Assembly: GCA_963662275.1 (NCBI GenBank) | Contig: OY759316.1 | Location: forward strand, 3,296,001 to 3,360,000 | Direction: 5' to 3' | Length of the DNA stretch: 64,000 bases | Source of the DNA: Candidatus Cloacimonadales bacterium | GTDB taxonomy: Bacteria > Cloacimonadota > Cloacimonadia > Cloacimonadales > DAONDQ01 | Shown here: in pieces, positions 13,909-30,783 of the stretch | How the letters are laid out: each line of letters opens with the position of its first letter | Position numbering within the stretch: position 1 is the first letter of the stretch | Position numbers and translations under genes: made by a program | Notes under the pieces: generated by a model | Database searches by the model: none | What the model saw: only the letters and a program-made list of their open reading frames with translations | What the model was told of the DNA's origin: nothing

Positions 13909-13935
13909 AAAAAAGCCCCCTATACAGGGGGCTTT
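13909..13935 (-). terminator. intrinsic terminator at the end of the Agl-Glt-like operon
   Basis: Hairpin AAAGCCCCCT-ATAC-AGGGGGCTTT with a U6 tail on the minus strand. Confidence 0.75.
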
Positions 13936-13948
13936 AAATCCCTTTTTA

Positions 13949-15430
13949 TCAATTCTTGATAAATTGATAACTGAAGATATAAGTAACTTGTTTATTAACC
14001 GGTATCTTCCACTTCATAATGACTGCTTGCGCCTTTTGCAGGAAAGAATCCGTAAAATAACTACCTGCTTTCGGTTTTATTTCAACACCGGCAATTGCAC
14101 CACCTTCATTGATATATATAGTGAATTCAAGAGCACCATACATATCACGAATCTGTGATTCTGTAATAAAAAGATTCTGAAGTTGCGGTTTGTAAGTAGA
14201 AACATAATTGCGTACATTGCCTAACTCAGCTTTAACAGCCGGTGAACTTGAGGCAATTTCTGTTTCCTTCACTGCTACAATACCAGCAGAAACGAATCGA
14301 CTGCGAACCGCACCAATCTGAGAACTTGAAACGATTCTCTGGGCTTGTATCTTTCCAGTCTTTCCACCAAGAGCAGATGCATCGATTTCTTTATAACCAC
14401 GCGCTCCGGCAACATTAATATTTCCTTTGAAGAGTTCTCCAACATTCTGTGCACTTCTGCTACCTGTGGGAGCTACATTGAAGGCAGAGGCTGCACGGCT
14501 TCCACCACCGGCAGTTCCTGGACCAGGACCAACGCCACCTTTTCCTTTTCCACCACCACCGCCACCGCCTAGACCTTGGGCAACAAGATCACGTTCTGTT
14601 GTGACAGCAATAACTCTGGCAGAGCGGGTTTCACCAGAAGATTGTGTGGCACCCGGATTAAAACCAAACTTGCTTTCAATAGCACCAGAATTGACGTCAG
14701 TACTTTTTGTTTGCTTACCCTGGGAAGCAGCATCCTTTTTTGCATTCGCAGCAGCTTCAGCGGCAGCTTTTGCAGCGGCTTCAGCAGCAGCTCCAGCATT
14801 CTCAGCTTCCGTACTCTTTTCTACCGTCTTCTGGACTTCTGCTGTAACATATTGTGCCATTTTCTGGGAAGCTTCTAAACGATTTTGCAGAGTGTTTTCA
14901 ATGACCTGGGGTTTGTAAAACATATTAAACAACAACATGCCAGCAACTGTAAAGATCACACCGGCAACTAAAAGGTTCCTGGAGAATCTTGCTTCTGCTG
15001 TCGTTTCAGTTTTATGAGAAAGCTGACTGATCACCTGCCTTTGTTCAGCAGTAAATTCTATTTTGTATGGTACTTGAAATTCATAGGCGATTTCCCAATT
15101 CTGTGAAAAGCTGATAGAACCTGTTGTATCTGGTGCTAATGTCAATTGACTTCCACTGATTAATTGAGCCTGCTTCAGTTTGCTGGAATCAAGGACTTGA
15201 TCACCTTTACGAACACTAACTTCCATACCTTGATGAAGATTTAGAACAAATTTATCATTTTCACATTGTACTAAAAGGAATTTATCTGGGAAATTTGGAT
15301 CTAGAATCTGCCAAAACAAGTTTTTATTACTTCCGATATAGAAGCTTTTCAAGAAGTCTCGTTTATATTTTGCAATATCGAGGTTCTTTCCCTTATAATT
15401 CAATTTGATGTTTAGAACTTTTTCTGCCAT
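13949..15430 (-). CDS. GltG/PglI-like TonB-family energy transducer
   Basis: N-terminal ~150-aa soluble domain, single TM (LLVAGVIFTVAGMLLFNMF), Ala/Lys- and Gly-rich linker, and a C-terminal TonB-C/AgmX-PglI-like domain (VRNYVSTYKPQLQ...GALEFTIYINEGGAI...IMKWKIP...YIFSYQF). It follows exbB-exbD-exbD. Confidence 0.65.
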   Translation of the reverse strand: MAEKVLNIKLNYKGKNLDIAKYKRDFLKSFYIGSNKNLFWQILDPNFPDKFLLVQCENDKFVLNLHQGMEVSVRKGDQVLDSSKLKQAQLISGSQLTLAPDTTGSISFSQNWEIAYEFQVPYKIEFTAEQRQVISQLSHKTETTAEARFSRNLLVAGVIFTVAGMLLFNMFYKPQVIENTLQNRLEASQKMAQYVTAEVQKTVEKSTEAENAGAAAEAAAKAAAEAAANAKKDAASQGKQTKSTDVNSGAIESKFGFNPGATQSSGETRSARVIAVTTERDLVAQGLGGGGGGGKGKGGVGPGPGTAGGGSRAASAFNVAPTGSRSAQNVGELFKGNINVAGARGYKEIDASALGGKTGKIQAQRIVSSSQIGAVRSRFVSAGIVAVKETEIASSSPAVKAELGNVRNYVSTYKPQLQNLFITESQIRDMYGALEFTIYINEGGAIAGVEIKPKAGSYFTDSFLQKAQAVIMKWKIPVNKQVTYIFSYQFIKN

Positions 15431-15438
15431 AGAACCCC

Positions 15439-15978
15439 CTACAGTTTCAAGACTTTGTCTTTGATGTCGCCTTTTAGAGTGGAGAAATAGATACTAGTAA
15501 AACGCGAGGCGACACTGACGTTAACGATTTCTGTAATATAGTTACACAGAACTGTATCATCTGCCTGTATCATTAATACAGGCACTGCTTTGGGATTATT
15601 AGCCATGATTTTTGATGCTTGATCAGTCAGGAATGACAATATATTCTGACGAGTCTTTTCATTGGTTATAAGATCTTCCAGACTCCCTACATTAATGTTA
15701 TCAGAACCAAGAAGAATTTTATCAGGATATACTTTCAAAATCACTGTATCAGCATCTTTCTGTAAATCTTCAACGTTCATAGTCGTAGGAAATTTCATAT
15801 TGGGAGGAACGGAAACCCTTTGAACTTCCATTGATACATTTTTTATTAGAAAGACCAGGAGAATAGTCAAAACATCCGTCAATGATGTGATATTCAATTT
15901 GGGTGCTTTTGCGACCTTTCTCCGGACTTTGCGGTTTGTATCATGTCTGTTAATTCGTTTTTTTGCAGTATAACTCAT
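15439..15978 (-). CDS. exbD: ExbD/TolR-family protein (AglS-like)
   Basis: TM LNITSLTDVLTILLVFLIK with conserved Asp35; periplasmic VLMIQADDTV motif. Confidence 0.8.
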   Translation of the reverse strand: MSYTAKKRINRHDTNRKVRRKVAKAPKLNITSLTDVLTILLVFLIKNVSMEVQRVSVPPNMKFPTTMNVEDLQKDADTVILKVYPDKILLGSDNINVGSLEDLITNEKTRQNILSFLTDQASKIMANNPKAVPVLMIQADDTVLCNYITEIVNVSVASRFTSIYFSTLKGDIKDKVLKL

Positions 15979-15987
15979 GACATCATC

Positions 15988-16500
15988 CTAGTTGGTTGCT
16001 TCGTAAAATCTTGTTTCAGGAGTTGAATATGTAACATTCGGAAATCCATCGATTTTACACACATCAATAGACCTGACTAATGTTTCATATGTTACGTCGG
16101 GGTATGGAACAACCTTGATATTAAATAAATTAGGATTCCTGTTCTTCAAACTTGTGATAGCTTCGTCCAATGCGATGAAATCATATTTCTTTTGTCCATT
16201 AACAACAGATGTCGGTATGGTAATTGAACCACTACCCTCTTCCTCAATGACAAACCTGTTGTTGTAGAGAACTACTTTTACCACTTTTATTTTCTCACCG
16301 CTTGATCCGGCACCTGTACCACCGCCACCACCACCTGAATTGCCAGTCAAGTTCAGTGAGATATAAGATAGCTGGACGGTTACAAGCATCGTCAGAAGCA
16401 TTGGAATAAGTACAATGAAAAGATTCATAATAGGGGTCATATCAAGTGGGTCCATCCCAGACATCTTAGTATTTCGACCTTTCGATGGGGAGAATGCCAT
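15988..16500 (-). CDS. exbD: ExbD/TolR-family protein (AglQ-like position), Asn at the conserved Asp site
   Basis: TM LDMTPIMNLFIVLIPMLL; C-terminal PYPDVTYETLVRSIDV...GFPNV. Confidence 0.75.
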   Translation of the reverse strand: MAFSPSKGRNTKMSGMDPLDMTPIMNLFIVLIPMLLTMLVTVQLSYISLNLTGNSGGGGGGTGAGSSGEKIKVVKVVLYNNRFVIEEEGSGSITIPTSVVNGQKKYDFIALDEAITSLKNRNPNLFNIKVVPYPDVTYETLVRSIDVCKIDGFPNVTYSTPETRFYEATN

Positions 16501-16503
16501 GAT

Positions 16504-17268
16504 TTAATCCTTAATCGTGTTATTGATTTGGTTGATCATTTTAACACTATATTCATCAATTCCATTGATTACTCTTTCTGCAGTACTTTGCAGATAAATA
16601 CGCAGGAATTGGATTGGTATTGCAACGATTAATCCGAGAGCTGTCGTTCCCATAGCAGTCTTGATACCCATGGTCAACAAACGTGACTGATCAACTGGTG
16701 CAGCCGTAGCTAATGCATTGAAAGAACCAATCAATCCCCAAACCGTTCCCAGAAGACCTAACAGCATAGCTATCTGGGCAAACAAATCGAGCCAGAACAA
16801 ACCTGAATCGATGCCAGGAATTGTTTGAAGAGAAGCTTCATCAAAGGCATTTTGTACAGAATCTCTCAATTCTTGTCCTTTCTTTCCTGCTTTGCGTGTA
16901 TCACGAAATATGGAGAATCCACTCCAGAAAATAAAACCTAAGGTAGTCTTTCTAAAACTGTCGCAAATCTTAATAGCTTCATCAATTTCATCATTTTTAA
17001 CATAGCCTTTCAATTTAAGATAGAGTTTTCCAGCATCTACCTTTTCCAGGACTAATATCCGCCGTACCTTAATAAATCCGAATACGATTGAGAGAGCTAA
17101 CATGCCTAAAATCAAGATTCCAAAGGTAAGACCGCTATCATGTATGACTCCCCAAATTGTAGTGCCGCCAGATGCCTGTTTGGCAGCTTCTTTTGCAGCT
17201 TCCTGGGCAAAGGCAAATCCTGCTGTTGCTAGCAGAGATATCATAAAACCGATTTTTTTAGTATTCAT
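16504..17268 (-). CDS. exbB: MotA/TolQ/ExbB proton channel protein (AglR-like)
   Basis: Motifs IAMLLGLLGTVWGLIGSF and GIKTAMGTTALGLIVAIP; N-terminal signal-like extension. Confidence 0.88.
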   Translation of the reverse strand: MNTKKIGFMISLLATAGFAFAQEAAKEAAKQASGGTTIWGVIHDSGLTFGILILGMLALSIVFGFIKVRRILVLEKVDAGKLYLKLKGYVKNDEIDEAIKICDSFRKTTLGFIFWSGFSIFRDTRKAGKKGQELRDSVQNAFDEASLQTIPGIDSGLFWLDLFAQIAMLLGLLGTVWGLIGSFNALATAAPVDQSRLLTMGIKTAMGTTALGLIVAIPIQFLRIYLQSTAERVINGIDEYSVKMINQINNTIKD

Positions 17269-17289
17269 AATAACCTATTCCTCCATTGT

Positions 17290-17556
17290 TTATTTATATA
17301 GCATTTTATTGGATTTCACTAATTTCTCAAGTAGGAAGTTTTTAAAATCATCCGATACTTCCGTCTTTTTGCGACCCATATAAGCACTAGTATCTGGTAC
17401 TCTCATGGTTGCACGGACATCTTCTGTTGTTTCTTCCTTGAGTACTTTTACATTGTCTGCTTCAAATTTCTTCTTAACATCGGTTGCTTCCTGGCAGAAA
17501 ATGTATGTCATGGAAAAGCATAAAACCAAACTTAATAAAAAAGTTCTAATTTTCAT
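17290..17556 (-). CDS. small secreted protein, GltF/CglF-like (88 aa)
   Basis: ATG at 17556 follows a GGGGA RBS and overlaps the upstream gene's end. Signal peptide MKIRTFLLSLVLCFSMTYIFC; C-terminal half ...VPDTSAYMGRKKTEVSDDFKNFLLEKLVKS. Confidence 0.55.
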   Translation of the reverse strand: MKIRTFLLSLVLCFSMTYIFCQEATDVKKKFEADNVKVLKEETTEDVRATMRVPDTSAYMGRKKTEVSDDFKNFLLEKLVKSNKMLYK

Positions 17557-20500
17557 TATTCCCCGCCTTGTCTTCTTGTACCACCTCTTGGTTTGTTTCA
17601 GGTAGAGCACTGGTAGCTTGCTTTTCATAATAGATCTGCAGATTCTCAGCAAAATACTGATCCACATCTGATTCGTTCATTACTTTGATTTCAATCTTAT
17701 TAATCCCTTCAATCAGATTCTGATTATCTATCCTAATTAAAGAATGTGATATCTGAATTCCATTTACCAGAACTGTATCAATGACCTGAGGCTCACTATC
17801 TAAAGGCTGCATATTGATATTCACAAGTATAGCACTGCTTGAAGCTATATGCATATAAGCAATACTTGGAAGTGTCGCAGATTTAATATCCCTGGATATC
17901 GTGATTGACTGATGAGGGAAAATCTTGATGCAACCAAGAGTAAATTTACTGGTTGTAGTAATATTCGGTAAGATCTGAGACTTTGAAATTGGAAACGAAT
18001 CTGGACCAACTTCTGTGGTCATACGCCATGTATCGTCAAGTATATTTTCCACAATCTCATAAGATGGAAGCCGATTCAATTCTACTAACATACTTGTAGC
18101 TGCACCGATGTTAGAATCAGTATAACCCGTACTCTCTGAGAAAGTCCTAATCAGATATGTTAAGTAAAAAACTTCCGCATCTTGTAAACCTAAAACATTA
18201 TCAGATTTCGTAGTTCTAATCATCTGGACAACTGTATCATATGTTTCAGGAGTTCCTTTAAGCTCTAATATTTCACGAGCAGTTAAGATATACTTTTCAA
18301 GTTGAGTATCCATCACCTGGGCAGCATGCTCATATATCTTACCAATTAACAGAATTGCTTTTGTCCGTCTTTGGCTATCAAGATCATAGTCATTTGCTGT
18401 CCGAAGTAACTTTTCAACCTCACTTCTATTTCTATTGGCTTCATCAATAAGACCTTGAATTCTCTTATCGCCTCCGTTTAACTTCTGTTTCCATGTCGTC
18501 TTATCATTCACAACAAGTAAGGTTGATGGAGACATTTTAAGGAAACCATTTTCAAGACTTGCCAACTTGTCATCATACGTTTTCAGGAATTTCATATTTG
18601 CCATTTCCGCATCATAAACAGTTCTGTATGCAGAAAAATCTTCATAGACACTGGACAATGGTAGCTTTAATCCTTCTTTCTGATAACTAGTATCGAGTTG
18701 TTTAAACTCGTCTATTCTAAGGAAAGTAGTCGTCCAATCCTTTCTTCCAAAAGCAGCTACGGCTTCATCATATATCTTTCCTAACTCACCTTTAGCAAGA
18801 TCAGGCAGAAGTGTAGAGTTTGGATCTTTCTGATAAATTTCAAGAGCCATCTTATGATATTCAGCTTCGTTCCCTTTTTCTTTATACTTAGCAGCAGAAT
18901 ATTCCAATAAACCTAACGCTTTAGGATGGTTTGGGTATAATCTAGCAAAATTCCTACTAAGTTCAGCCACTTTTTGATCATATCCATTTTGTCGATATTG
19001 TTCAAGCGCTAACAAGTAGATATCTTCCTTGGGGTCGCTGCCAATATTGATTCTGCCTGCGACTGCATCATTATACAGATCCAAGTACATATTAGCGGCA
19101 CGATCTTTTGTTTCTGCACTTTTAGCAACTTCAGTGATCAATGTTAAACGTGTCTGATAGGCTTCAACAGATTTGGGATATTTGGTAACAAAGTTATTTT
19201 TCAACTGTTCTGACTGTACTTTATCCGTTAATAGACTATCTGCAATCGTCCATGCATTCACATAAAGGATATAGATATCATTTACGTTATCCTTATATTT
19301 GGCAACATCCAATAGCAGATCAATACTTTTCTGATACATACCGGCTTTGTTGTATAAATCTTGTGCTACTATTTTATAACCAATCACTCTAGTTTGATCA
19401 GTTTTATCAAACTCACTTGCAAGTTTCAGATATTCTTCAGCAGCCTTGGAATATTCATTCTTAGATTTGAGTAAATCAGCCTGGTTATTCATTTGAACAA
19501 GGTAATTGTCATGAATTGCCTGTTTGTCTTGGGCATTCAAAGCATACGACTCTGCTTCTTTATAGTAACTTGTTGCTTGATCAAAATTGCTTGCTTTTTC
19601 GCTGAGCTGTGCAAGTTCAGTATAAATTCCTCTTTTCTGACTAACAGGAAGATTATATTTCAAAATAGCAAGAAGATCTTGCGTCGCTCCATTATAATCA
19701 CCAACTTTTTGTCGAATTTGGCTTCTTCCATAGATAACATGAATTATTTCATCATCCTTATTAGTATCTGTATTCTTATCAGAAAGAAGAATGGCAAGAT
19801 ATCTTTCAACTCCCTGAAGATACAGTGTATCAACAGCAGCAGATGAAATAGTAAAAGTATACGTCGTATCAGAGTATGTACCATTTGTATATTTATCCTT
19901 CAATAATTCCTGAAGTTTCTCAATACAAATGAACGCTCTTCTTTCATTCTGAAAATAATTTGTATTCTCTGGGTTGTCCTGGTTAGATTGGTAAATTCTC
20001 TGATTCAACTCTAAGTATAATTTAGGATTGTTCTGATGTTCTGCTAAATCGTAATTCGCCAGGATAACCTTTTGAGCTTTATCTGTAATCCATCCTTGAT
20101 TGGTTGAATCCACCAGCTCTGGAGTGTTTTGAAAACGAGCTATCAAACCAGCATACTTTTGGAAAGCGAGTAATGACTTATTATTAAAGTACTCATTCCA
20201 GTAATAGGGTTCAAGGAAGAAATAGGACTCGCAAACTATTTTCATAGGTACTTTCAAATCATTAGATTTATTGGCGTTATACCAGGATGAACCAACGCTA
20301 TACGTGCTAATAATCTTCTCTTTTTCAGCTAAAATCACATCTTTCAAGTTCATGTTCGGGCGTAAACCATTCGCATTTGTCGAATAAATCACAATGATTG
20401 AATCTTCCAAAGAAGGGTTTTCCAATTCATTCGGGTAAAGAGTCATATAGGCGTTATAGAAATCAATCGCCTGCATAGGTGCATTCAGGCTTTTTTTAAT

Positions 20501-21406
20501 CTGAACTGCTTTTAGAAGTATCTTCTTCCCATATGAAACGCTTACTGTATTAGGAAGATGATTAATGGCATAAAGCGCTCCCTCTGAATTGGACACATAA
20601 TCATTTTTATCCAAGTTAACTAAGCTATATGCGACATTTTCAATTGATGAATCTTCATAATAAACTTGGAGTTTAAGACTTGGATTAGCCATCAGGGATA
20701 AGATACTACAAAAATCACTGAAAGATTTCTCATATAAACCGGAAGATAAGTTAGCCCAACCTCTTTGGAAAAGACCTATATACTGAAGATCATCATTTGA
20801 ACGGTTCGCCAGGATATTAAACAAATCAGATGCTTTTTGGTAATATTCAACAGGGCGTTCCGCGTCTAAACCTATCTGATAATAGTCAACAGCTAAACGA
20901 AAAATTGCTTCTGATCTATAGGTGGAAGTTGGGAAATCTCTAATTAATTCACCATATGCGTCGATCGCCGGTTGCATATCCTTTATCGTTACCTTTAAAG
21001 AATCCACATTATTGGTGATCTCCTCAGCGTTACGATTTACGGCGCGGATACGTTTATCATTGACTTTATTCATGGCTGACTGGGAAACATAGAATCCAAT
21101 ATTGTACAATATTCTGTCTTTTTCTCTGAAATTCGGATCATTGATTAATACTTGCTGATAATAATAGAGCGTAATCTCTGGATGCTGTAGATTGATAGCT
21201 CCACTGAGTTCAGCTAAATTAGAATAGAGGGAAGCATTGTTAGGTAAATTTGGATTTTCTTGTATAAAATTCAGAGTTTGTTGAAAAACTTGTCTTTTTA
21301 ATACAAGATTCTTTTCCAATTGTATTTGTAATTGTTCGTCAGTTACAGCAACAGCCATTGAAACGATAAGTAACAAAACTGTAAATATGAAAATACCCTT
21401 ATTCAT
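17546..21406 (-). CDS. large secreted TPR-repeat protein (GltD/AgmU-like position)
   Basis: Signal peptide, multiple TPR-like helical repeats (AIDAYGELIRDFPTSTYRSEAIFRLA; FVTKYPKS; FARLYPNHPKA) and a beta-rich C-terminal tail. Confidence 0.7.
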   Translation of the reverse strand: MNKGIFIFTVLLLIVSMAVAVTDEQLQIQLEKNLVLKRQVFQQTLNFIQENPNLPNNASLYSNLAELSGAINLQHPEITLYYYQQVLINDPNFREKDRILYNIGFYVSQSAMNKVNDKRIRAVNRNAEEITNNVDSLKVTIKDMQPAIDAYGELIRDFPTSTYRSEAIFRLAVDYYQIGLDAERPVEYYQKASDLFNILANRSNDDLQYIGLFQRGWANLSSGLYEKSFSDFCSILSLMANPSLKLQVYYEDSSIENVAYSLVNLDKNDYVSNSEGALYAINHLPNTVSVSYGKKILLKAVQIKKSLNAPMQAIDFYNAYMTLYPNELENPSLEDSIIVIYSTNANGLRPNMNLKDVILAEKEKIISTYSVGSSWYNANKSNDLKVPMKIVCESYFFLEPYYWNEYFNNKSLLAFQKYAGLIARFQNTPELVDSTNQGWITDKAQKVILANYDLAEHQNNPKLYLELNQRIYQSNQDNPENTNYFQNERRAFICIEKLQELLKDKYTNGTYSDTTYTFTISSAAVDTLYLQGVERYLAILLSDKNTDTNKDDEIIHVIYGRSQIRQKVGDYNGATQDLLAILKYNLPVSQKRGIYTELAQLSEKASNFDQATSYYKEAESYALNAQDKQAIHDNYLVQMNNQADLLKSKNEYSKAAEEYLKLASEFDKTDQTRVIGYKIVAQDLYNKAGMYQKSIDLLLDVAKYKDNVNDIYILYVNAWTIADSLLTDKVQSEQLKNNFVTKYPKSVEAYQTRLTLITEVAKSAETKDRAANMYLDLYNDAVAGRINIGSDPKEDIYLLALEQYRQNGYDQKVAELSRNFARLYPNHPKALGLLEYSAAKYKEKGNEAEYHKMALEIYQKDPNSTLLPDLAKGELGKIYDEAVAAFGRKDWTTTFLRIDEFKQLDTSYQKEGLKLPLSSVYEDFSAYRTVYDAEMANMKFLKTYDDKLASLENGFLKMSPSTLLVVNDKTTWKQKLNGGDKRIQGLIDEANRNRSEVEKLLRTANDYDLDSQRRTKAILLIGKIYEHAAQVMDTQLEKYILTAREILELKGTPETYDTVVQMIRTTKSDNVLGLQDAEVFYLTYLIRTFSESTGYTDSNIGAATSMLVELNRLPSYEIVENILDDTWRMTTEVGPDSFPISKSQILPNITTTSKFTLGCIKIFPHQSITISRDIKSATLPSIAYMHIASSSAILVNINMQPLDSEPQVIDTVLVNGIQISHSLIRIDNQNLIEGINKIEIKVMNESDVDQYFAENLQIYYEKQATSALPETNQEVVQEDKAGNNEN

Positions 21407-23424
21407 CGACTACCTGTCCCCTGATCCTGTTGATCAGTTCGTTCCGATTCTTTTTGCAGAAGTTTATCATTATTCAAAGTTTTGATGTAGCTTAATTCTA
21501 AGAGAGTATACTCAAATTGTTTATTCATCTCGTTAACCTGTTGATTCAAACTCTCAAATTGTTGACCATAAACCTTGAATATCTCATCAAACTGACCAAT
21601 ACGAGTTTTTGCATCACGAAGAAGCTTACCTGCTAATTTGCGATTAAAGTTTTTCGAAACATCCTCTCTTATCACAATCAAGGAATCTCTGGTATTCATT
21701 ATGTCCTGCAAAGTACTCCGTATCGCTTGTTCCTTTTCAGGATTGGTATTATAATTCCCAAAAAAGTGATTTGCAGCTAATTCCAGATTAGCTATGTCTT
21801 CTGCGAGAGAATTATAGGTTGCATAGGCTTTATCAGCCAATGCTGTGTTTCCAGATTTTTTTGCCTGGTCACCAACCTGTTTCCAATTGAGCAATGCTTT
21901 TCTCTCTTCCCAAATTTCCCTGGAAATGAGTTGCGCATTTTCATATTTTGTAGCGGACACTTCAGGCAAATTGGCTATTAGATTATACGCAAATGCTTTT
22001 ACATAAGTAGAATCAAGATCAGCAATATGCTTATCGATAAGTGCTGTTTCATCAACATTTGGCTTATTAACCAGTTGTTTAATCTTGAGCACTTCCTGAG
22101 TCAGCAAATTTTGATATGTGATGTACTTATCTTCAATATTTTGTATCTTCTTTAATTCAACGGGATTGATACCGTACGACTGATTTGTTAATTGAAGATC
22201 AATATCAGAAATTTGCTGTTCTAAAACACTCATTTCGTTCACTATAGCTAGATTTGTTTCCTTACTATTACTACTGATAAATTGATCTCTTAAGTCTCTT
22301 AATCTATAAATAGCATGGTGTTTTTCATTGATTAACTGAAGAAAGTTATCATTCAGTTTTTCTGAATTATCCACTACGTTCCTTGCTCCTTCTTCATCAC
22401 CTTGTATGCTTTTCATATAGACTATCATATAAACTGAAGAAGTATAGAATTCGGTAGCTTTCGGATCGTTGAGGATCTGGTTTAATAGAGTTTCCGCTTG
22501 TCCAAACTTTCCTGAATTCTTCAAGGCAATTGCCATTTCATATTTGATTTCACTCGCTGAAGTATTGGCATTCACCTGAGAATATTGAGAATAGTATGTC
22601 AATGCCTCATCAAGATTTCCCAATTCGGCATACAATCGTGCTATACATAGCAAAATGAAATCATAATAGGGTGCTTCCGGAGAATAATCATCTTTGATTT
22701 TCATGAATTGTTCAAGGGCAGCATCAGGTGAGACCGAACTGACTACAATCAAAGCAAGCATCGCTTTTGATCTAAGTCCTAAAGTTTTATCACCCGTTAT
22801 TGACATAAAACTTTCATAAGAATTGTCATATTGCCCCAGATTATAATACGCTTGCCCCAATGCATAAATTTGTTCATTCGTCTTAGCAGTCGTTATCGTT
22901 GAATCCAGAGCTATCAGTTTGATATCCTGATTTGTCGCTATATAGATTTTTTCTAGAAGTGATATGCCAGCATTGTATTTGATAGAATTGGGATAATACT
23001 TAATGAAGTCTTCCAAGGCAACTTGCGCTGATTCATAATACTTATTATTAAAATCTATGAGAGCCTTGTCATAAAGAATCCGATCCTGAACAGAAGGAAT
23101 ATCTTTATAAATCATTTTCATTTCAACCAATTTATCAGAAGCAGCTTCCAAACTCTGATTTTTCATAATATCAATCAGTTGTTTTTCTTCTACCTCAAAA
23201 CTTTGCATAAGAGCCGACATATTTCCGGCGTTATACTGCTTCTGCACTTCTAATCTCTTAGTTGCCACAGAGGCTAATCTATCTATTTGGGCTCGGAGTT
23301 CATTGTACTTATTCAGTTCTGAAGTAACGATAGAACGTAAAGAATCTTCAGAAACATTCTGCGCAATCAGAATATTTCCAAAAACAAAGAACATTACGAG
23401 TAACAAGAAAGATTTAGCTTTCAT
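21403..23424 (-). CDS. secreted TPR plus coiled-coil protein (GltC-like position)
   Basis: Signal peptide; TPRs (ALEDFIKYYPNS; YALGQAYYNLGQYD; IARLYAELGNLDEA); helical coiled-coil C-terminal half. Confidence 0.7.
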   Translation of the reverse strand: MKAKSFLLLVMFFVFGNILIAQNVSEDSLRSIVTSELNKYNELRAQIDRLASVATKRLEVQKQYNAGNMSALMQSFEVEEKQLIDIMKNQSLEAASDKLVEMKMIYKDIPSVQDRILYDKALIDFNNKYYESAQVALEDFIKYYPNSIKYNAGISLLEKIYIATNQDIKLIALDSTITTAKTNEQIYALGQAYYNLGQYDNSYESFMSITGDKTLGLRSKAMLALIVVSSVSPDAALEQFMKIKDDYSPEAPYYDFILLCIARLYAELGNLDEALTYYSQYSQVNANTSASEIKYEMAIALKNSGKFGQAETLLNQILNDPKATEFYTSSVYMIVYMKSIQGDEEGARNVVDNSEKLNDNFLQLINEKHHAIYRLRDLRDQFISSNSKETNLAIVNEMSVLEQQISDIDLQLTNQSYGINPVELKKIQNIEDKYITYQNLLTQEVLKIKQLVNKPNVDETALIDKHIADLDSTYVKAFAYNLIANLPEVSATKYENAQLISREIWEERKALLNWKQVGDQAKKSGNTALADKAYATYNSLAEDIANLELAANHFFGNYNTNPEKEQAIRSTLQDIMNTRDSLIVIREDVSKNFNRKLAGKLLRDAKTRIGQFDEIFKVYGQQFESLNQQVNEMNKQFEYTLLELSYIKTLNNDKLLQKESERTDQQDQGTGSR

Positions 23425-23436
23425 ATTATCCTGCTT

Positions 23437-24411
23437 TTATTGTTGGTCTTGGAGTATTTTTTTAATTTCTCCTAATTCCTTCTCTGCCTGTTCTCTCTTT
23501 TCACGAATCAACCTCAATTCATCCAGTAATTCATTCCCTTGTTTAATTTCTTCAGGTTTAGTTACTGTTCTGCGTCCGGCGAATTCCTGCTGACCACCTT
23601 CAAGTCCAAAAAGTACATTAGGTCTCTTGGTCGTAACATATTTATCAAAAGTATAGCCTACATTCATACCAAAACGCAAACTCTGAAACTGTTCAAGCTC
23701 CATCATTGTAAGTTGCCCGCTAAAATTCTTATAGGTAATTTTACCTGCAGCATTTAGATTGAAACCATCCATCTCCGCAATGACAGACCACATCGGTGTT
23801 GGTTTTACTTCCAAGCCGACAAACACCCCATCAATCTTATGCGAGAGCTCGTTTTGACCTCTAAAACGATTTGTTCCAGCACCTATGGTAATTATGGTCT
23901 CCAAATAATTGATAAAACCTAAACCACGAACGACACTTGACTTGGTAATTGCAGCATATAGGGAATTTCTTTCGTACATACAAGGTTCTACGATATTTTC
24001 CCATCTGGCAGCATTTGGTGCTTCCTTAGGTACTTTGGAGAACAGATTATCTGCTCCGATCGTGATCGCAGGTAATCTAACTGTTTCTTCTAATATTTTT
24101 AATTTAGCATTACCACAATAAACACCGTGTTCGGCTGCCACAAAGCCTAATTCTCCACGATTCATGATACCGACATTAATCATTCCATCCCAAGTATATT
24201 GGTATTTATGACTTTGAAGATAAGTAATATTGTTGTAGTTCGGACTATGCCAATCATTTGCAGAAAAATAATTAACATATGACACAGTCACCATATTACC
24301 TGGCATAACATATGCATTGGGAACTCTAATATTCCCCAAGTTTCCGATCGGAATCGCTTGAAGAATGCAGAGTACAGACACAAGGATAGAAAAGACCACG
24401 TATTTTTTCAT
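23437..24411 (-). CDS. putative outer-membrane beta-barrel protein (YjbH-like) with a C-terminal coiled coil
   Basis: Signal peptide; IRVPNAYVM; KLKILEETVRLPAITIG; amphipathic strands ending FGMNVGYTF; C-terminal LLDELRLIREKREQAEKEL. Confidence 0.55.
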   Translation of the reverse strand: MKKYVVFSILVSVLCILQAIPIGNLGNIRVPNAYVMPGNMVTVSYVNYFSANDWHSPNYNNITYLQSHKYQYTWDGMINVGIMNRGELGFVAAEHGVYCGNAKLKILEETVRLPAITIGADNLFSKVPKEAPNAARWENIVEPCMYERNSLYAAITKSSVVRGLGFINYLETIITIGAGTNRFRGQNELSHKIDGVFVGLEVKPTPMWSVIAEMDGFNLNAAGKITYKNFSGQLTMMELEQFQSLRFGMNVGYTFDKYVTTKRPNVLFGLEGGQQEFAGRRTVTKPEEIKQGNELLDELRLIREKREQAEKELGEIKKILQDQQ

Positions 24412-24508
24412 ATTCCCCCCACATTATCTTAATGTTGTTTTTTTTTGATTCATCTACATAGCATTTATAATGTATTGACATGTATTAGTCAAGTTTTATT
24501 TTATATAA

Positions 24509-24892
24509 ATGAAAAATGAAAACCCTTTAGCCTTGGCAAAAAATGGTGAAGATTTAGCTGCATCCATACTCTCCCAAAAGGGTTATACTATACTACAGAT
24601 GAATTTTCACAGTCGTTTTGGCGAAATTGATATTATCGCCAAATCACCTTCGCACATCATTTTTACTGAAGTAAAAACTCGTTCTTTTTTAAACAGAGAC
24701 CTTGCTTTAGAAGCTGTCTCATTAAAAAAACAAAAACGCATTCTCAAGACAGCTTTGCATTTTCTTCAGCAGCATCAGGAATACAATGAATTCATGATCC
24801 GCTTTGACATTATACTCGTCTTTTATCACCACGCAACAGAAAACTTCAGCATTGAACATATTGAAGATGCTTTTTCATTCAGTGGGGTATGA
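24509..24892 (+). CDS. yraN: YraN/UPF0102 family endonuclease-like protein
   Basis: GEDLAA...KGYTIL..NFHSRFGEIDIIA...FTEVKTR...RFDII...IEHIEDAF. Confidence 0.9.
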   Translation: MKNENPLALAKNGEDLAASILSQKGYTILQMNFHSRFGEIDIIAKSPSHIIFTEVKTRSFLNRDLALEAVSLKKQKRILKTALHFLQQHQEYNEFMIRFDIILVFYHHATENFSIEHIEDAFSFSGV

Positions 24893-26230
24893 AGAATCCT
24901 TCTCCAAATCCTCTTCTTGAAAATTTTTCCCTAAATAGCGCTGCCAATCAGCTTGTGAATTCTCTTTTTCATCATTTTTAGCATAGATCATTTTATAATT
25001 ACCATTCATTTGTATATCAATAAAAACATAGCTTCTGCCACTTTTTGTGTACTTCCAAATCTGATAATCCTTTTGTACAAACTTTGTATCATCGGAAGTT
25101 ACCCGTTTACTGATATCATCAGGCACACCCATTCGGATATAAATCCTACCCATGTCAGATTCCCAACCCGGTTTGAAATGTGAGTAAAATTTATTTGCAT
25201 AACTGATTCGATTCTTAATCAATGTCGTCCATTGCAGGACAGGCTGATTTTCTTCCGCTGCAAGAGAAATCCATAATTGAGTTGTCATGCGTTTTTTCCC
25301 ATCATTCGAAAGTACATCCAGGGAGGATAGTTTCGATTTTGGATAAAAATACTTCAGTAATGAAATCTCCTCTGCTATCTTCGGTAAGATACTGATAAAA
25401 TCTTCTTTTATTTCTCCCAGGGAGAAGAAAGTAGTAACGGTATCCGGTTTTGATCCTGATTTCCTAATGATCTTTAAATCCAGTAAACCATAAGGAAGAT
25501 CTTTCAAAGAAATACATGTTTGTATATTTGTTAAGGAGGATGTTGATTGGGTACTCGTTTCCCATGAACGAAGAATAGTTTTATCCTTGAGTAACCGATA
25601 TTCCATTTCGAAAGAAATACTGCCACCAGTTCCATTGGTAGGTCCAAACATTTGATAATAGATATACATACTATCCTGTAAGGCTGGATAAAAAACATGG
25701 GAAGGTTCAACCAAATATATTTTGTTATTTCTTCGGAATTTCTCCATATATCTTGTGGTATCTGCAGTGGCAATAGATTTGCTTAATTCAATATCACTGA
25801 GAGACCTATCAACTGGTAATTCGATAAGATCCTTGACCCAGGTTTTCGAATTAGTAGACTTCGGATCTGTAAATGTAATCCTGATTTTGTAACTCTTACC
25901 ACTCAAAACCAGGCTAATCTTATCCATAAAGGATTTTTGTTCTGACTCTGCATCATTCTGACTCGAGACCCCGATTTTATTGGTGAATTCCTTTTGAGTA
26001 ATGACGGAATCACTTTTTAGAATTTCGATTTTTACAGTTAGATCAGCAAAATAACCTTTTTGAAATCCGACAAAACTCAAATTGTTGTATTTGACTTGGT
26101 AGTTAATCTCAAATTTGGTTTGATGTTTCTCATTAAAGAAGCGATTCATATCGATGTTCACAGGTAAATTAGCTGCCCAACACGCGAAAAAGGTAAAAGT
26201 GAATAGTAGTGTTGCTAATATTTTATTCAT
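24875..26230 (-). CDS. GWxTD domain-containing exported protein
   Basis: Signal peptide; RISYANKFYSHFKPGWESDMGRIYIRMGVPD...YQIWKY. Confidence 0.85.
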   Translation of the reverse strand: MNKILATLLFTFTFFACWAANLPVNIDMNRFFNEKHQTKFEINYQVKYNNLSFVGFQKGYFADLTVKIEILKSDSVITQKEFTNKIGVSSQNDAESEQKSFMDKISLVLSGKSYKIRITFTDPKSTNSKTWVKDLIELPVDRSLSDIELSKSIATADTTRYMEKFRRNNKIYLVEPSHVFYPALQDSMYIYYQMFGPTNGTGGSISFEMEYRLLKDKTILRSWETSTQSTSSLTNIQTCISLKDLPYGLLDLKIIRKSGSKPDTVTTFFSLGEIKEDFISILPKIAEEISLLKYFYPKSKLSSLDVLSNDGKKRMTTQLWISLAAEENQPVLQWTTLIKNRISYANKFYSHFKPGWESDMGRIYIRMGVPDDISKRVTSDDTKFVQKDYQIWKYTKSGRSYVFIDIQMNGNYKMIYAKNDEKENSQADWQRYLGKNFQEEDLEKDSSYPTE

Positions 26231-27344
26231 CGGATACCGATCCTAGTTGGTAATTCCCCCAACTGTTAAAATCATAAAATTGGAAGATTTTGTTTTCAGA
26301 ATAATAGTACCATATAATGTATGGTGGTCTATCCAAGGGATATGGATCAGATACCACTTCATCAGGAGTACCGTATTTAATAAAAATTCTACCTCTGTCA
26401 GATTTCCAACCTGGTCGATAGTTGCGAATCGAATAATTCCGATCCGCCTCTAATACTCGGGCTTCAAAGGTATCTCTGAATTCATTGCGGTTCGTACCAG
26501 GAGTGGGATCCTTCATCTTCCAGAAATCTTCGATTGCCTGTTTATCTTTTTCATGTTTGATTGACCTGAAATATTGTAGTTCATTTTGATTCATAATATA
26601 TTTCAATTGCAGCACCTGATCCTCAATCGAATAGCGTTCGCTGAAACCGCTTGTGGAATTAAACGAAAGTACTTCTTTCGTATATTTCACTTTTTGTGCA
26701 AAGACCTGCAATTTTATTACAGGATGTTCCAAACCGGCAAGAATTGATTTCATATCTACATGGATAACTTGTCCAGCAGAAATATTAATTATTTTAATTT
26801 TATCCTCTTCTGCTATGGAGATCTTGACACTATCCGGTATGATTCCCAGGTTCGTCTGTAAAAGCAATGAATCAACTTTTGAAGACAGATTATCAAGCTC
26901 ATGAACTAAAAAATAGTTATTCCCCATTTTACCAATTAAAAATAAAGTTCCAATTTTTTTCCCATTACTTGGAATTATCAATGGAAATTTCTGCTCATTT
27001 TTATCACCTAGATCAAGGTTATTTACCTGCATGTATAACATATAATTCCCGGGAGGAAGCTTGATATTGCGAAAAATAGGATAGTCTTCTGTATCCATGG
27101 AATCAGGTTTTGTAAATTTTAACGGCTCAAATTCATGGTAAACATTTTTTTTATTCGTATCTAATATATCCACTTTCAATTCATAGTCACAAATTCTGGT
27201 TTGAAGATTAGGATGAAATCCGGAATACGGGAGAAGTAGTAATAGTATTGTAGTATCGCCAACTTTTTCAGATCTTAATTGCTGACCGATGAGAAACGTT
27301 TGGAGACTTATTAGGAGAATAACTAATCCTATGATTTTATACAT
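26223..27344 (-). CDS. GWxTD domain-containing exported protein
   Basis: Signal peptide; FWKMKDPTPGTNRNEF...RVLEADRNY...PGWKSDRGRIFIKYGTPD. Confidence 0.85.
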   Translation of the reverse strand: MYKIIGLVILLISLQTFLIGQQLRSEKVGDTTILLLLLPYSGFHPNLQTRICDYELKVDILDTNKKNVYHEFEPLKFTKPDSMDTEDYPIFRNIKLPPGNYMLYMQVNNLDLGDKNEQKFPLIIPSNGKKIGTLFLIGKMGNNYFLVHELDNLSSKVDSLLLQTNLGIIPDSVKISIAEEDKIKIINISAGQVIHVDMKSILAGLEHPVIKLQVFAQKVKYTKEVLSFNSTSGFSERYSIEDQVLQLKYIMNQNELQYFRSIKHEKDKQAIEDFWKMKDPTPGTNRNEFRDTFEARVLEADRNYSIRNYRPGWKSDRGRIFIKYGTPDEVVSDPYPLDRPPYIIWYYYSENKIFQFYDFNSWGNYQLGSVSDE

Positions 27345-30300
27345 AATTTATCGTCTTTACAAAGACCTTGAACCCTTTCCCTTGTAATGCACTGATTAAT
27401 TTTACATCAGGATAGATCTTCAGCGTGTTTGAATGAAGAACCATCTGTTTAAAACGTTCTGATTTAATCATAAATGATACATGGAATTGTCCTTTTTCTC
27501 CCTCGGACATCTTCCTTACTTCATGTGCCAAATCTATGTTTGCATCTTTTTCATCCAACTGGATGAACACATCTCCAGTCAGGTGATTACGTAATTCAGA
27601 AATCGGAAACAGCATTTTTGGAACGATCCGCAACAAACTCTCATCCCCATTTGAATAGGCAGATTTCTTGCCGAATATGAATAAAAATTTTCCTGTTTCT
27701 ATCTTATCAATGAACTGATGATAATCCTTATCAAATAAGGTTAGCTCGAATCTACCTTCCATATCTTCACAAATGACAAATGCCATCATCTTCCCGTTTT
27801 TATTTTTTTTCTTCCTAATTTCCGTCACAATACCAACTAACCGGAGATCACTTTGTATCTGTTCCTGTTCTGGTGAAGTCTGACTATTCGCATTAGAGAA
27901 TAGATCCAACACCGGTTTGTATTCAAATAAAGGATGACCGGAAACATAGAATCCCAAGACACTTTTTTCCATTTCCAGTTTTTTATTAAAGTTCCAATCA
28001 ATCGCTTCCGGTAATTTTGGGAAATATGTATTCTCTTCCTGTGTGTCATCCAAGATATCAAAGAGAGTCATCTGCCCTCGTTTCTTTTCTCGATGATGGC
28101 TGGCTGCAAATTCAATGACAGATTCTACTGCTTCCCACTTTTGTGCTCGTGTACCTTCCAGATTATCCATGGCTCCTGCTGCGGTTAAGCTTTCGAGTAC
28201 AGTTTTGTTCACTGCCATGGGATCAACCCTGCTGCAAAGATCATAAATACTTTTGTAGGTACCGTTTTTATCTCTTTCTTCAATTAAAGCTTGAATGGCA
28301 GCATCACCCACATTCTTCACACCTCGCAAACCAAATAGTATGGAATCACCATGCACGGCAAAAACATCATGGCTTTGATTAATATCCGGGGGTATGACCT
28401 TGATACCCATTGCCATGCATTCTTCCATGAAATATGGTATCTTTACGGGATCATCTTCCAAGGATAGGAGAGCAGCCATGAATTCAACAGGATAGTGTGA
28501 TTTCAGAAAAGCTGTCTGGAATGCCACTAAAGCATAACAGGCTGCATGACTTTTATTAAATGCATATTCTGCAAATTTTTTCATTTCCTCCCAGATTTTA
28601 TCAGAGATCTGGTAAGCAACACCATTTTTGAAGGCATTCTCTTTGAATGTCTTTTCGTATTTTTCCATCATAGACAGTTTCTTCTTACCCATGGCTTTGC
28701 GAAGTGAATCTGCTTCTCCCCTGGTGAAATTACCCATCTCTCGGGAAATTTGCATCACCTGCTCCTGGTAAACAATCACTCCATATGTATCCCGCAATGC
28801 AGCTTCTGATAAAGGATGTGAATATTGAACTTCTTCCTCTCCGTGCTTTCTGCGGATATAATTGCTGATAAATTGCATTGGACCTGGACGATAAAGAGCA
28901 ACCATAGCAATCAGGTCATCAAACTGGTTGGGTTTCAATTCCATCAGGTTCTTTTTCATACCGGGAGATTCAAACTGGAAAATACCGTCAGTCTGACCTT
29001 TCGCTAACAACTCATAACTTGAGGCATCGGTTAGATCAAGATTTTCTATATCTATATTAATATCCTGGGATGATTTGACGATCTCAATAGTTCTTTGAAT
29101 CAATGTCAGGGTTTTTAAGCCCAGGAAATCTATTTTTAGAAGCTTCAGATCTTCCAGGCATCGTCCTTCATATTGGGTGACGGCTGAATTCTCCTGTCCC
29201 TTTTGGCTTGTACTTGCCAGGGGTACATAATCGCTGAGATCTCCGGGTCCAATCAGAACACCAGCAGCATGCACTCCAACCTGTCTGACTAAACCCTCCA
29301 AAACTAAACTATGCTTTAGGATTGTGGCATAGACGGCATTATTCTCCATTAACATGCGAAATTCAGGAGACTCTCTCAGACATTCTTTTAGAGTGATTTT
29401 GGGTTTACTGGGCATAATTTTCGTAATTAGATTTGAATCTACGGCAGATACACCCATGACACGCGCAACGTCCTTGATGACAGATTTCGCACCAAGAGTT
29501 CCGAAAGTAACGATTTGCGCTACACTGTCACGTCCATATTTTTCAATTACATAATCAATAACTCTTGATCTTCCCTGGGCACAAAAATCGATGTCTATAT
29601 CCGGCATACTGATACGATCCGGATTCAGAAAACGCTCAAAAAGCAGATCATATTTCAAAGGATTGATGCGGGTAATATCCAATAAATAGGAAACGATACT
29701 ACCTGCAGCAGAACCTCTACCAGGACCTACAGGAATATCCATAGCTCGCGCGGCATCAATAAAATCCTTTACCACAAGAAAATAACGTTCAAAACCAGTA
29801 CCTTTGATCACTCCCAGTTCATAATCGATCCGTTCTTGAATCTCGTCTGTTATTTCTCCATATTTTTGAGGAACGGCACTTAAACAGAGATTCCTAAGAT
29901 ATTCAGTATAATTGGTATCACCGTCAGGTAAATCGAAACGTGGTAACAAAAATTCATCATAATCTAATACTAAATCTATTTGATTCGCGATCTTCTGCGT
30001 ATTCTCGTAGGCTTCATCCAATTCAGGAAACAACAGGCGCATCTCCTGTTCGTTCTTAAAATATAACTCATTGGTATTGTAATGCATCCGATTCGTATCT
30101 TCCAGCGTTTTACCTGTTTGAATGCAGAGCAGGATATCATGAGCTTCAGCATCTTCTTCCAGGAGATAATGGCAATCATTTGTCACGACCATTGGAGTAT
30201 CAGTGTCCTGCGCTAATTTAATCAGCTTGGGTATGATCAGTTTTTCATCTGGTAGATTATGGTCTTGCAATTCGATATAAAATCTGCCGGGGAATGTTTC

Positions 30301-30783
30301 CTTGTAGAACTTTAGAGCTTCCTCAGCTCCTTTTTCATTATCATTCAGTAATAGATTGGGAATTTCTCCCTGCAAACAAGCAGATAAGCAAATCAGACCT
30401 TCATTGTATTGTTTTAAAAGGGATTTACTGATCCTGGGTTTGTAGTAGAAACCATCCATAAAGGATTTGGAAGTCAGTTTCATGAGGTTTTTATAACCTT
30501 TCAGGTTTTGAGCAAGCAGGACAAGATGATAGCGATGATCAGGACGGGATTCAATCTGATCAATCTCGCCATTGATTAAATAGGTTTCAATACCAATAAT
30601 GGGCTTGAGTTCCAGTTTCTTGGCTGCATTGTAAAACTCGATTGCCCCGAACATATTTCCATGATCGGTAATGGCAACGGCATTCATTCCGAACTCTACC
30701 GCAAGATGCAACATTTTATCAATACGGCAGGCACCGTCAAGAAGACTGAATTGAGTATGATTGTGTAGATGAACAAACGCCAT
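27337..30783 (-). CDS. dnaE: DNA polymerase III subunit alpha
   Basis: PHP domain HLHNHTQFSLLDG; GPGRGSAAGS; SMPDIDIDF; YAFNKSHA; C-terminal OB fold. Confidence 0.98.
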   Translation of the reverse strand: MAFVHLHNHTQFSLLDGACRIDKMLHLAVEFGMNAVAITDHGNMFGAIEFYNAAKKLELKPIIGIETYLINGEIDQIESRPDHRYHLVLLAQNLKGYKNLMKLTSKSFMDGFYYKPRISKSLLKQYNEGLICLSACLQGEIPNLLLNDNEKGAEEALKFYKETFPGRFYIELQDHNLPDEKLIIPKLIKLAQDTDTPMVVTNDCHYLLEEDAEAHDILLCIQTGKTLEDTNRMHYNTNELYFKNEQEMRLLFPELDEAYENTQKIANQIDLVLDYDEFLLPRFDLPDGDTNYTEYLRNLCLSAVPQKYGEITDEIQERIDYELGVIKGTGFERYFLVVKDFIDAARAMDIPVGPGRGSAAGSIVSYLLDITRINPLKYDLLFERFLNPDRISMPDIDIDFCAQGRSRVIDYVIEKYGRDSVAQIVTFGTLGAKSVIKDVARVMGVSAVDSNLITKIMPSKPKITLKECLRESPEFRMLMENNAVYATILKHSLVLEGLVRQVGVHAAGVLIGPGDLSDYVPLASTSQKGQENSAVTQYEGRCLEDLKLLKIDFLGLKTLTLIQRTIEIVKSSQDINIDIENLDLTDASSYELLAKGQTDGIFQFESPGMKKNLMELKPNQFDDLIAMVALYRPGPMQFISNYIRRKHGEEEVQYSHPLSEAALRDTYGVIVYQEQVMQISREMGNFTRGEADSLRKAMGKKKLSMMEKYEKTFKENAFKNGVAYQISDKIWEEMKKFAEYAFNKSHAACYALVAFQTAFLKSHYPVEFMAALLSLEDDPVKIPYFMEECMAMGIKVIPPDINQSHDVFAVHGDSILFGLRGVKNVGDAAIQALIEERDKNGTYKSIYDLCSRVDPMAVNKTVLESLTAAGAMDNLEGTRAQKWEAVESVIEFAASHHREKKRGQMTLFDILDDTQEENTYFPKLPEAIDWNFNKKLEMEKSVLGFYVSGHPLFEYKPVLDLFSNANSQTSPEQEQIQSDLRLVGIVTEIRKKKNKNGKMMAFVICEDMEGRFELTLFDKDYHQFIDKIETGKFLFIFGKKSAYSNGDESLLRIVPKMLFPISELRNHLTGDVFIQLDEKDANIDLAHEVRKMSEGEKGQFHVSFMIKSERFKQMVLHSNTLKIYPDVKLISALQGKGFKVFVKTINYV

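Follow-up and report, generated by a model that had tools for sequence, protein, structure and literature searches.

A 64,000-nucleotide window from the genome of a Candidatus Cloacimonadales bacterium (contig OY759316.1, positions 3,296,001 to 3,360,000; the window is this whole stretch, and positions below refer to it unless marked otherwise) contains an operon of eight minus-strand open reading frames (ORFs), 24411..13949. The genome is complete, with 4.38 Mb on one contig and 99.97% completeness. With a probability of roughly 0.78, the operon is the form taken in Cloacimonadota by the Agl-Glt 'core complex' (Group B genes); it lacks GltE and has an outer-membrane barrel and an 88 amino acid (aa) peptide of its own. 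The sequence-only reading of this DNA had proposed a gltC-gltD-aglR-aglQ-aglS-gltG arrangement, and three kinds of evidence bear it out. First, the last gene encodes a protein with the architecture of GltG and detectable homology to it. Second, the two large tetratricopeptide repeat (TPR) proteins match GltC-like and GltD-like proteins reciprocally. Third, gene order and protein sizes agree with published core loci. Profile and Foldseek comparisons return matches that go beyond ordinary TonB/ExbBD or Tol systems, and Glt likeness is found for the 493-, 673- and 1286-aa proteins.

The Agl-Glt core is the proton-driven assembly that Myxococcus elaborated into its gliding machinery. It comprises aglR, aglQ, aglS, gltC, gltD, gltE and gltG, and is reported from Gamma-, Beta- and Deltaproteobacteria and from Fibrobacter succinogenes (PMC3169522). 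It also occurs in bacteria that do not glide, where its function is unknown, and always includes one extra gene (PMC3169522). The eight genes of the window operon, in the direction of transcription, are:

23437-24411, minus strand: 324-aa outer-membrane protein, signal peptide and barrel (AlphaFold2 [AF2], Foldseek)
21403-23424, minus strand: 673-aa secreted TPR and coiled-coil protein, GltC-like (TPR Pfam families, hhalign)
17546-21406, minus strand: 1286-aa secreted TPR scaffold, GltD-like, with a beta-rich C-terminal part (hhalign)
17290-17556, minus strand: 88-aa secreted peptide (start at ATG 17556, with which the N-termini of relatives agree)
16504-17268, minus strand: 254-aa TolQ/ExbB-type channel subunit, AglR position (PF01618)
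15988-16500, minus strand: 170-aa TolR/ExbD-type subunit, Asn in place of the membrane Asp, AglQ position (PF02472)
15439-15978, minus strand: 179-aa TolR/ExbD-type subunit, membrane Asp kept, AglS position (PF02472)
13949-15430, minus strand: 493-aa GltG-like transducer (AF2, Foldseek, hhalign)

The predicted GltG-type transducer

By homology and predicted structure, the 493-aa protein is a GltG-type transducer. An AF2 model built on a 27-row alignment contains a confident all-beta domain (residues 1-120), a transmembrane (TM) helix at ~145-171, a disordered stretch (194-394) and a confident alpha/beta domain (397-490), with per-residue confidence (pLDDT) values above 90 at residues 1-120 and 400-490. 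Foldseek searches of the PDB place FHA domains on top for the N-terminal domain (5a8i, E 6.3e-4, TMt 0.60; Ki67; Rv1747) and TonB C-terminal domains (CTDs) on top for the C-terminal one (6sly, 9dc4_T, 6fip, 1u07). The linker between them, ~200 residues long, is rich in Ala and Gly and carries three conserved short motifs. The earlier description of this protein as a cytoplasmic domain, TM helix, linker and TonB-C-like end thus holds as architecture, and its cytoplasmic domain can now be specified as an FHA fold. GltG is published as FHA + TM + TonB_C (PMC3169522, Table 1), and in a structural-model paper as an FHA domain adjoining the TM helix, with a TonB-like CTD on the far side of a long disordered linker (PMC11761067). 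The hallmark set of cytoplasmic FHA, one TM helix, periplasmic linker and TonB_C-type end is present in the 493-aa protein.

Homology searches lead in the same direction. The profile of the 493-aa family, run against 1.84 billion proteins, returns only 164 matches at E<=1e-3, including distant ones of ~440-476 aa and one of 609 aa. In an NCBIfam scan of nine distant matches, every one scores above threshold with NF033768, the AgmX/PglI-tail model (74-110 bits, against a cut-off of 40). The gliding_GltG equivalog NF033760 also matches the same nine, at 74-198 bits and E 1e-20 to 2e-58. None of these scores reaches its cut-off of 650, and for eight of the nine no other family ranks above it. The 609-aa protein also has a Pfam FHA domain above cut-off, and full-length relatives of one distant match are titled 'AgmX/PglI C-terminal domain-containing protein [Polyangia bacterium]'. 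Direct hhalign comparison of the 493-aa family with the Polyangia-type GltG family gives a probability of 99.6% (E 3.9e-24) over 179 columns that span the FHA domain and the TM helix.

Within the 493-aa family itself, NF033768 matches 24 of 27 members, all under its cut-off, and tonB_Cterm and Pfam TonB_C (PF03544) match two of 27 each. NF033768 was rejected as a sole discriminator, since it also gives sub-cut-off matches in E. coli and in the canonical TonB proteins of this genome. A PDB sequence search with the 493-aa protein returned nothing meaningful, and a search for cluster-member names of 10 distant matches yielded one name, which is unrelated. The family's C-terminal domain also occurs by itself, on small ORFs (130-200 aa) of relatives (G019, G001, G032 and others), and it terminates one Ser/Thr kinase, one caspase-domain, one SBBP-repeat and one TPR-PD40-OmpA protein (P0128, P0146, P0167, P0174).

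The TPR proteins and the missing GltE

A metagenome scan with Polyangia-type GltG relatives provided 80 reference loci, in which gene order was read where upstream DNA was present. These loci contain no stator genes and encode:

GltC-like protein, ~770 aa: NCBIfam gliding_GltC, 55-57 bits
protein in GltD position, ~1200 aa: NCBIfam TPR protein
GltE-like protein, about 340-400 aa: NCBIfam gliding_GltE, 69 bits
small protein, ~135 aa: no NCBIfam family
GltG-like protein, ~470 aa: NCBIfam gliding_GltG, 163 bits

In hhalign comparisons, the 673-aa family matches the GltC-like profile at 97.7% probability (E 1.6e-12, 201 columns) and the 1286-aa family matches the GltD-like profile at 96.7% (E 3.9e-10, 319 columns, residues 45-383). 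The swapped pairs give 4.3% (673-aa family against GltD-like) and 8.0% (1286-aa family against GltC-like). Because the reciprocal matches are high and the swapped ones low, the likeness to GltC and GltD is specific and goes beyond a general TPR resemblance. The 673-aa protein matches TPR Pfam families. Detectable relatives of the 1286-aa protein come solely from Cloacimonadota-type records (19 proteins found by sequence and 15 by alignment, all of the same family), and an ESM Atlas search returned giant-TPR clusters only.

The operon has no third TPR gene and the GltE equivalog NF033758 is silent in the window region, in agreement with the earlier claim that a separate gltE is lacking. GltE is treated here as dispensable to the core, because the published Fibrobacter core also lists none.

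Gene order and protein sizes

The window order agrees with that of the published Gura_3077-3070, Sde_2961-2954 and Fisuc_1892-1897 loci, gltC-gltD-(gltE)-(extra gene)-aglR-aglQ-aglS-gltG, and the two TPR proteins compare with published ranges of about 950-1300 aa for GltD and about 570-750 aa for GltC, both secreted TPR proteins. Protein lengths (aa) are as follows, with the Geobacter and Fibrobacter values taken from PMC3169522, Table S3:

Geobacter: GltC 629, GltD 1108, GltE 240, extra gene unlisted, AglR 211, AglQ 166, AglS 166, GltG 484
Fibrobacter: GltC 746, GltD 1292, GltE none, AglR 212, AglQ unlisted, AglS 164, GltG 308
Window: GltC 673, GltD 1286, GltE none, extra 88, AglR 254, AglQ 170, AglS 179, GltG 493

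Conservation across the phylum

A survey of one genome per species, scanned with the 1286-aa family, identified 40 loci, of which 37 are from Cloacimonadota/Cloacimonadales, two from Candidatus Tenebribacter and one from an 'uncultured bacterium'. All seven larger genes occur in the same order at 24 loci, and a contiguous subset in window order occurs at 12 more, mostly broken off by contig ends; none of the 40 shows a different order. These counts place the operon order above chance. The remaining four loci have a relative of the 1286-aa protein alone, and three of these are second copies. Such second relatives, in three genomes (L044, L047, L049), are ~1650 aa long, and the other operon genes are not nearby.

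The flanking GWxTD genes, yraN and priA are also conserved, and at most related loci the operon comes with the GWxTD genes and yraN. Of 41 genomes drawn from across the phylum, 29 have a member of the 493-aa family. Within the window's order most families carry one, and none was found in the sampled genomes of three families (f7, f8, f9).

The stator

The 254-aa protein matches PF01618 MotA_ExbB at 75.6 bits (cut-off 22.9). Its best NCBIfam model is TolQ (71.8 bits, below the cut-off of 221), and its best PDB matches are TolQ chains (E 2.4e-8). The 170- and 179-aa proteins match PF02472 ExbD at 30.3 and 36.9 bits, respectively (cut-off 25.4), and belong to two distinct families. At the column aligned to the membrane Asp of E. 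coli TolR, the 170-aa family has Asn in all 30 rows, and the 179-aa family keeps the Asp in all 30. AglQ and AglS are both described with a membrane Asp (PMC9389320).

Elsewhere in this genome lies another motor cluster of this subtype, smaller than the operon (L011:7320-12702; G000:C1:2038319-2043701), whose stator is the closest paralogue of the operon's. Its products are a secreted protein of 254 aa, an ExbB of 248 aa, an ExbD of 143 aa with Gly at the TM Asp column, an ExbD of 156 aa with Asp, a protein of 319 aa that is anchored at its N-terminus and has a long low-complexity linker, and a helical secreted protein of 643 aa.

The barrel and the 88-aa peptide

The 12-stranded outer-membrane barrel and the 88-aa secreted peptide are lineage-specific additions to the core, and neither protein has a Pfam or NCBIfam family. 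The AF2 model of the 324-aa protein (mean pLDDT 71.8) shows a ~12-stranded beta-barrel behind a signal peptide and a conserved N-terminal segment, followed by a disordered stretch (263-292) and a conserved C-terminal helix (294-323). It has 28 relatives at the same operon position. A barrel does stand at the head of the operon, as first proposed, and its assignment to YjbH is rejected: Pfam, NCBIfam and Foldseek searches of the PDB give no YjbH match, and the fold is a generic 12-stranded one, with the COG4313 channel 4rl8 (E 1.2e-5), FapF and KdgM (TMt 0.65) as its structural neighbors.

The 88-aa peptide has a conserved core and a conserved C-terminal end of the KKSNKLLY type. Relatives of 78-104 aa align from the ATG 17556 start, and BLAST detects the peptide at 26 of the 40 loci. 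It had been labeled gltF. That label is withdrawn, as hhalign against GltF-position proteins gives a probability of 1.8% and gltF is reported to be confined to Myxococcales and Bdellovibrionales (PMC3169522).

Evidence weighing against a Glt core

Several observations weigh against identification of the operon as a Glt core. The window proteins have no match at E<=0.01 to the Myxococcus-derived NCBIfam equivalogs NF033756, NF033758 and NF033760. In the genome search, NF033760 gives no match to the 493-aa protein even at E<=1, and NF033768 stays under its cut-off; for the 673-aa family, NF033756 does not appear among the 25 of 32 matching families that were listed. The TPR homology is limited to N-terminal parts, 201 of 673 and 319 of 1286 residues. 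The reference Glt-like loci are themselves metagenome contigs, recognized by sub-cut-off GltC, GltE and GltG equivalog matches and one above-cut-off domain model.

The stator adds further points on this side. Its closest named relatives are TolQ proteins, the AglR, AglQ and AglS labels come from position and family, and the 170-aa TolR-like subunit lacks the Asp, unlike AglQ and AglS. A pair of ExbD genes is not specific to a Glt core, because three of the five motor loci of this genome have two. Finally, the GltG-like protein is missing from 12 of the 41 phylum genomes sampled.

Since the three equivalogs are unmatched and the peptide has no likeness to GltF, the operon is not, as judged by sequence comparison, an orthologue of the Myxococcus gliding machine.

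Alternative explanations

The operon could instead be a divergent Tol-Pal-like system, in which a TolQ-TolR-TolR stator, a TolA-like transducer and YbgF/CpoB-like TPR proteins serve outer-membrane attachment and constriction and replace a missing Tol-Pal. This explanation is unlikely, although several observations fit it. For the 254-aa protein, NCBIfam and the PDB both give TolQ as the best relative. The YbgF model matches all 25 members of the 673-aa family (best E 1.7e-13) and CpoB matches six of them. No TolB is found above cut-off in the complete genome (best 63 against 343 bits; TolB was detected in the control genomes, in two of them above cut-off), and none of the genome's three OmpA-domain genes lies near any of the five motor loci. 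However, the operon itself has neither TolB nor Pal, and in its transducer an FHA domain is combined with a tail of the AgmX/PglI type. The YbgF match reports TPR type only, because GltC-like and GltD-like reference proteins match the model too. The 12 genomes in which no GltG-like protein was found would also be odd for an essential envelope system. This alternative is about function and is compatible with Glt-core ancestry; a Tol-like envelope role for the operon's output is a reasonable guess, given the sub-cut-off TolB in the genome and the YbgF/CpoB matches of its TPR proteins.

A second alternative, raised in the sequence-only reading, is that the Glt-core machine is the proton-driven energizer of a type IX secretion system (T9SS)-like pathway that has SprA, PorV-like and CTD-bearing cargo proteins and lacks GldLM; paralogous motors of the genome might share the task. 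Such a role would be the first function of the core complex outside gliding. Part of the evidence fits: sprA and CTD-bearing genes lie within the window, SprA_N is above cut-off in 36 of 41 Cloacimonadota genomes, and GldL and GldM are each above cut-off in none of the 41, in searches run without a T9SS-positive control genome, so that their absence is not shown. A search for gldKLMN elsewhere in this genome likewise gave nothing above cut-off, with GldK below it and GldN without a match, again without a positive control. The distribution of the parts speaks against the idea. The GltG-like protein is absent from seven of the 36 SprA-bearing genomes, and five of those seven, checked with the 1286-aa profile, give TPR-level matches only (15-22 bits). 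The proximity of sprA is not conserved; in five relatives that carry both on one contig (G032, G019, G003, G001, G012), sprA and the cluster are 96 kb to 1.1 Mb apart. The motor in the window is of the MotA_ExbB/ExbD families and not of the GldL/GldM type, and the ExbB-ExbD-ExbD-TonB locus that has a PorV-like gene and a CTD protein as neighbors is a different one in this genome. An energizing role for the window operon is therefore not borne out and is very improbable.

That other locus (L010:5370-17273; G000:C1:4335169-4347072) encodes a receptor-like protein (CarboxypepD_reg + Plug), ExbB, two ExbD proteins and a canonical TonB. Next come a 1034-aa protein that belongs to no family, a PorV-like protein (PF19572, 32.7 bits) and one that bears a CTD. 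With the GldK model, 55 matches in the genome stay below cut-off (best 91 bits), and each of them is to the FGE-sulfatase-type portion at the model's C-terminus. They point to a large expansion of this domain, with many copies in a 3333-aa ORF (G000:C1 2908419-2917565) and matches in ~40 other places. Cloacimonadota appear to have SprA-type secretion without recognizable GldKLMN, which merits a study of its own.

An ordinary TonB-ExbB-ExbD energizer of TonB-dependent uptake with accessory TPR proteins, which would account for the ExbB/ExbD Pfam families, the TonB-CTD fold of the last domain and the paired ExbD genes common in this genome's motor loci, is less probable still, since the operon has no TonB-dependent receptor, the genome has a canonical receptor-ExbB-ExbD-ExbD-TonB locus at another site (TonB_C 65 bits; tonB_Cterm 49 bits), Pfam TonB_C reaches just the two family members noted above, and the transducer has a 120-residue FHA N-terminus instead of a short one, homology to the GltG family and operon partners with reciprocal GltC and GltD matches.

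Proposed mechanism and significance

If the operon is a Glt core, a TolQ-like pentamer would surround a heterodimer of the two TolR-like proteins, one of them Asp-bearing, and proton flow would be converted into movement. This movement would be handed to the 493-aa transducer, which would be seated on the stator by its FHA domain and TM helix. The transducer's linker of ~200 residues could span the periplasm, its short conserved motifs resting on the 1286-aa scaffold, and the TonB-type end may grip the scaffold, the 88-aa peptide, or both. The 673-aa TPR/coiled-coil protein would then link the scaffold to the barrel. The architecture in this scheme is partly shown, and we infer the coupling, all protein contacts and the output. 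The output is not TonB-type nutrient uptake; most likely a component of the outer membrane or the cell surface would be moved or gated, or the envelope maintained.

The role of the Agl-Glt core in bacteria that do not glide has been open since 2011, and this locus would extend the core to another phylum of the Fibrobacterota-Chlorobiota-Bacteroidota (FCB) group. In titles and abstract openings, the literature on Cloacimonadota together with type IX secretion or gliding motility contains no description of this operon. A barrel, two scaffolds, a peptide, a stator and a transducer form a compact, self-contained set in one operon, and so give structure prediction and reconstitution a minimal list of parts to start from. 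Practical work is limited by the fact that these bacteria are uncultured. The one-Asp stator offers a natural test of whether a single Asp suffices for a 5:2 motor.

Operon boundaries and neighboring genes

The eight genes are tightly coupled and are followed by a terminator-like hairpin, as the sequence-only reading had stated. In operon order, 5' to 3', they are separated by a 12-nt gap, a 4-nt overlap, an 11-nt overlap and gaps of 21, 3, 9 and 8 nt; the 11-nt overlap is that of the 88-aa gene start with the stop of the 1286-aa gene. The putative signals at the two ends are:

24464..24492, minus strand: promoter-like site TTGACT-17 nt-TATAAA, ~50 nt 5' of the first ATG (consensus match only)
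13912..13935, minus strand: intrinsic-terminator-like hairpin and T run (10 pairs, 6 G-C, loop 4, tail TTTATATCTT)

As read from the sequence, the promoter-like site sits in a 97-nt gap common to the operon and the divergent yraN. It was not listed by the signal scan because the scan demands T at position 6 of the -10 hexamer. The terminator-like hairpin is 13 nt past the last stop, and priA comes after it. Also on the minus strand (24875-30783), two GWxTD-domain genes (373 and 451 aa) lie with dnaE (1148 aa), which overlaps the first of them by 8 nt.

The signal peptides of the 673-, 88- and 254-aa proteins and of their relatives are predicted to end A-Q or G-Q, such that Gln would be the first mature residue. 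These mature ends are reminiscent of the 'Q-rule', which has been described for Bacteroidetes.

Comparison with known systems

Like the window operon, the Tol-Pal and TonB-ExbBD systems have stators of homologous families, a transducer with one TM helix whose long linker leads to a globular end of the TonB/TolA type, and TPR proteins of the YbgF/CpoB type. The operon differs from them in that it has no TolB, Pal or receptor and does have an FHA domain, a single-Asp TolR heterodimer (an inferred pairing) and giant TPR scaffolds.

Similarity to the Agl-Glt gliding and Agl-Nfs spore-coat machines of Myxococcus xanthus lies in the core logic as modeled in PMC11761067, in which GltG docks via its FHA domain and TM helix on an AglR5-AglQ-AglS stator and reaches through a disordered linker to place its TonB-like CTD on GltD. 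The CTDs of Myxococcus GltG and of the window protein have the same structural match in the PDB, 6sly (PMC11761067). Myxococcus GltG has an N-terminal and a central FHA domain (PMC11761067), whereas the window protein has one. From Group A, GltF is the only protein that was compared, and the 88-aa peptide does not match it; nothing in the window bears on motility.

The closest correspondence is to the core complex of PMC3169522, with which the operon shares gene order in one operon, similar protein sizes, a TolQ-like and two different TolR-like subunits, an FHA-TM-TonB-type transducer and two large TPR proteins; GltE is absent as in Fibrobacter. In contrast to published cores, the window sequences are too remote for Myxococcus-based NCBIfam models, the GltD-like protein carries a beta-rich C-terminal extension, the 170-aa subunit has Asn, and the phylum is new. 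An unrelated 88-aa peptide takes the slot that GltE or the 'additional gene' fills in other cores, and a dedicated 12-stranded barrel with a C-terminal helix stands at the operon head.

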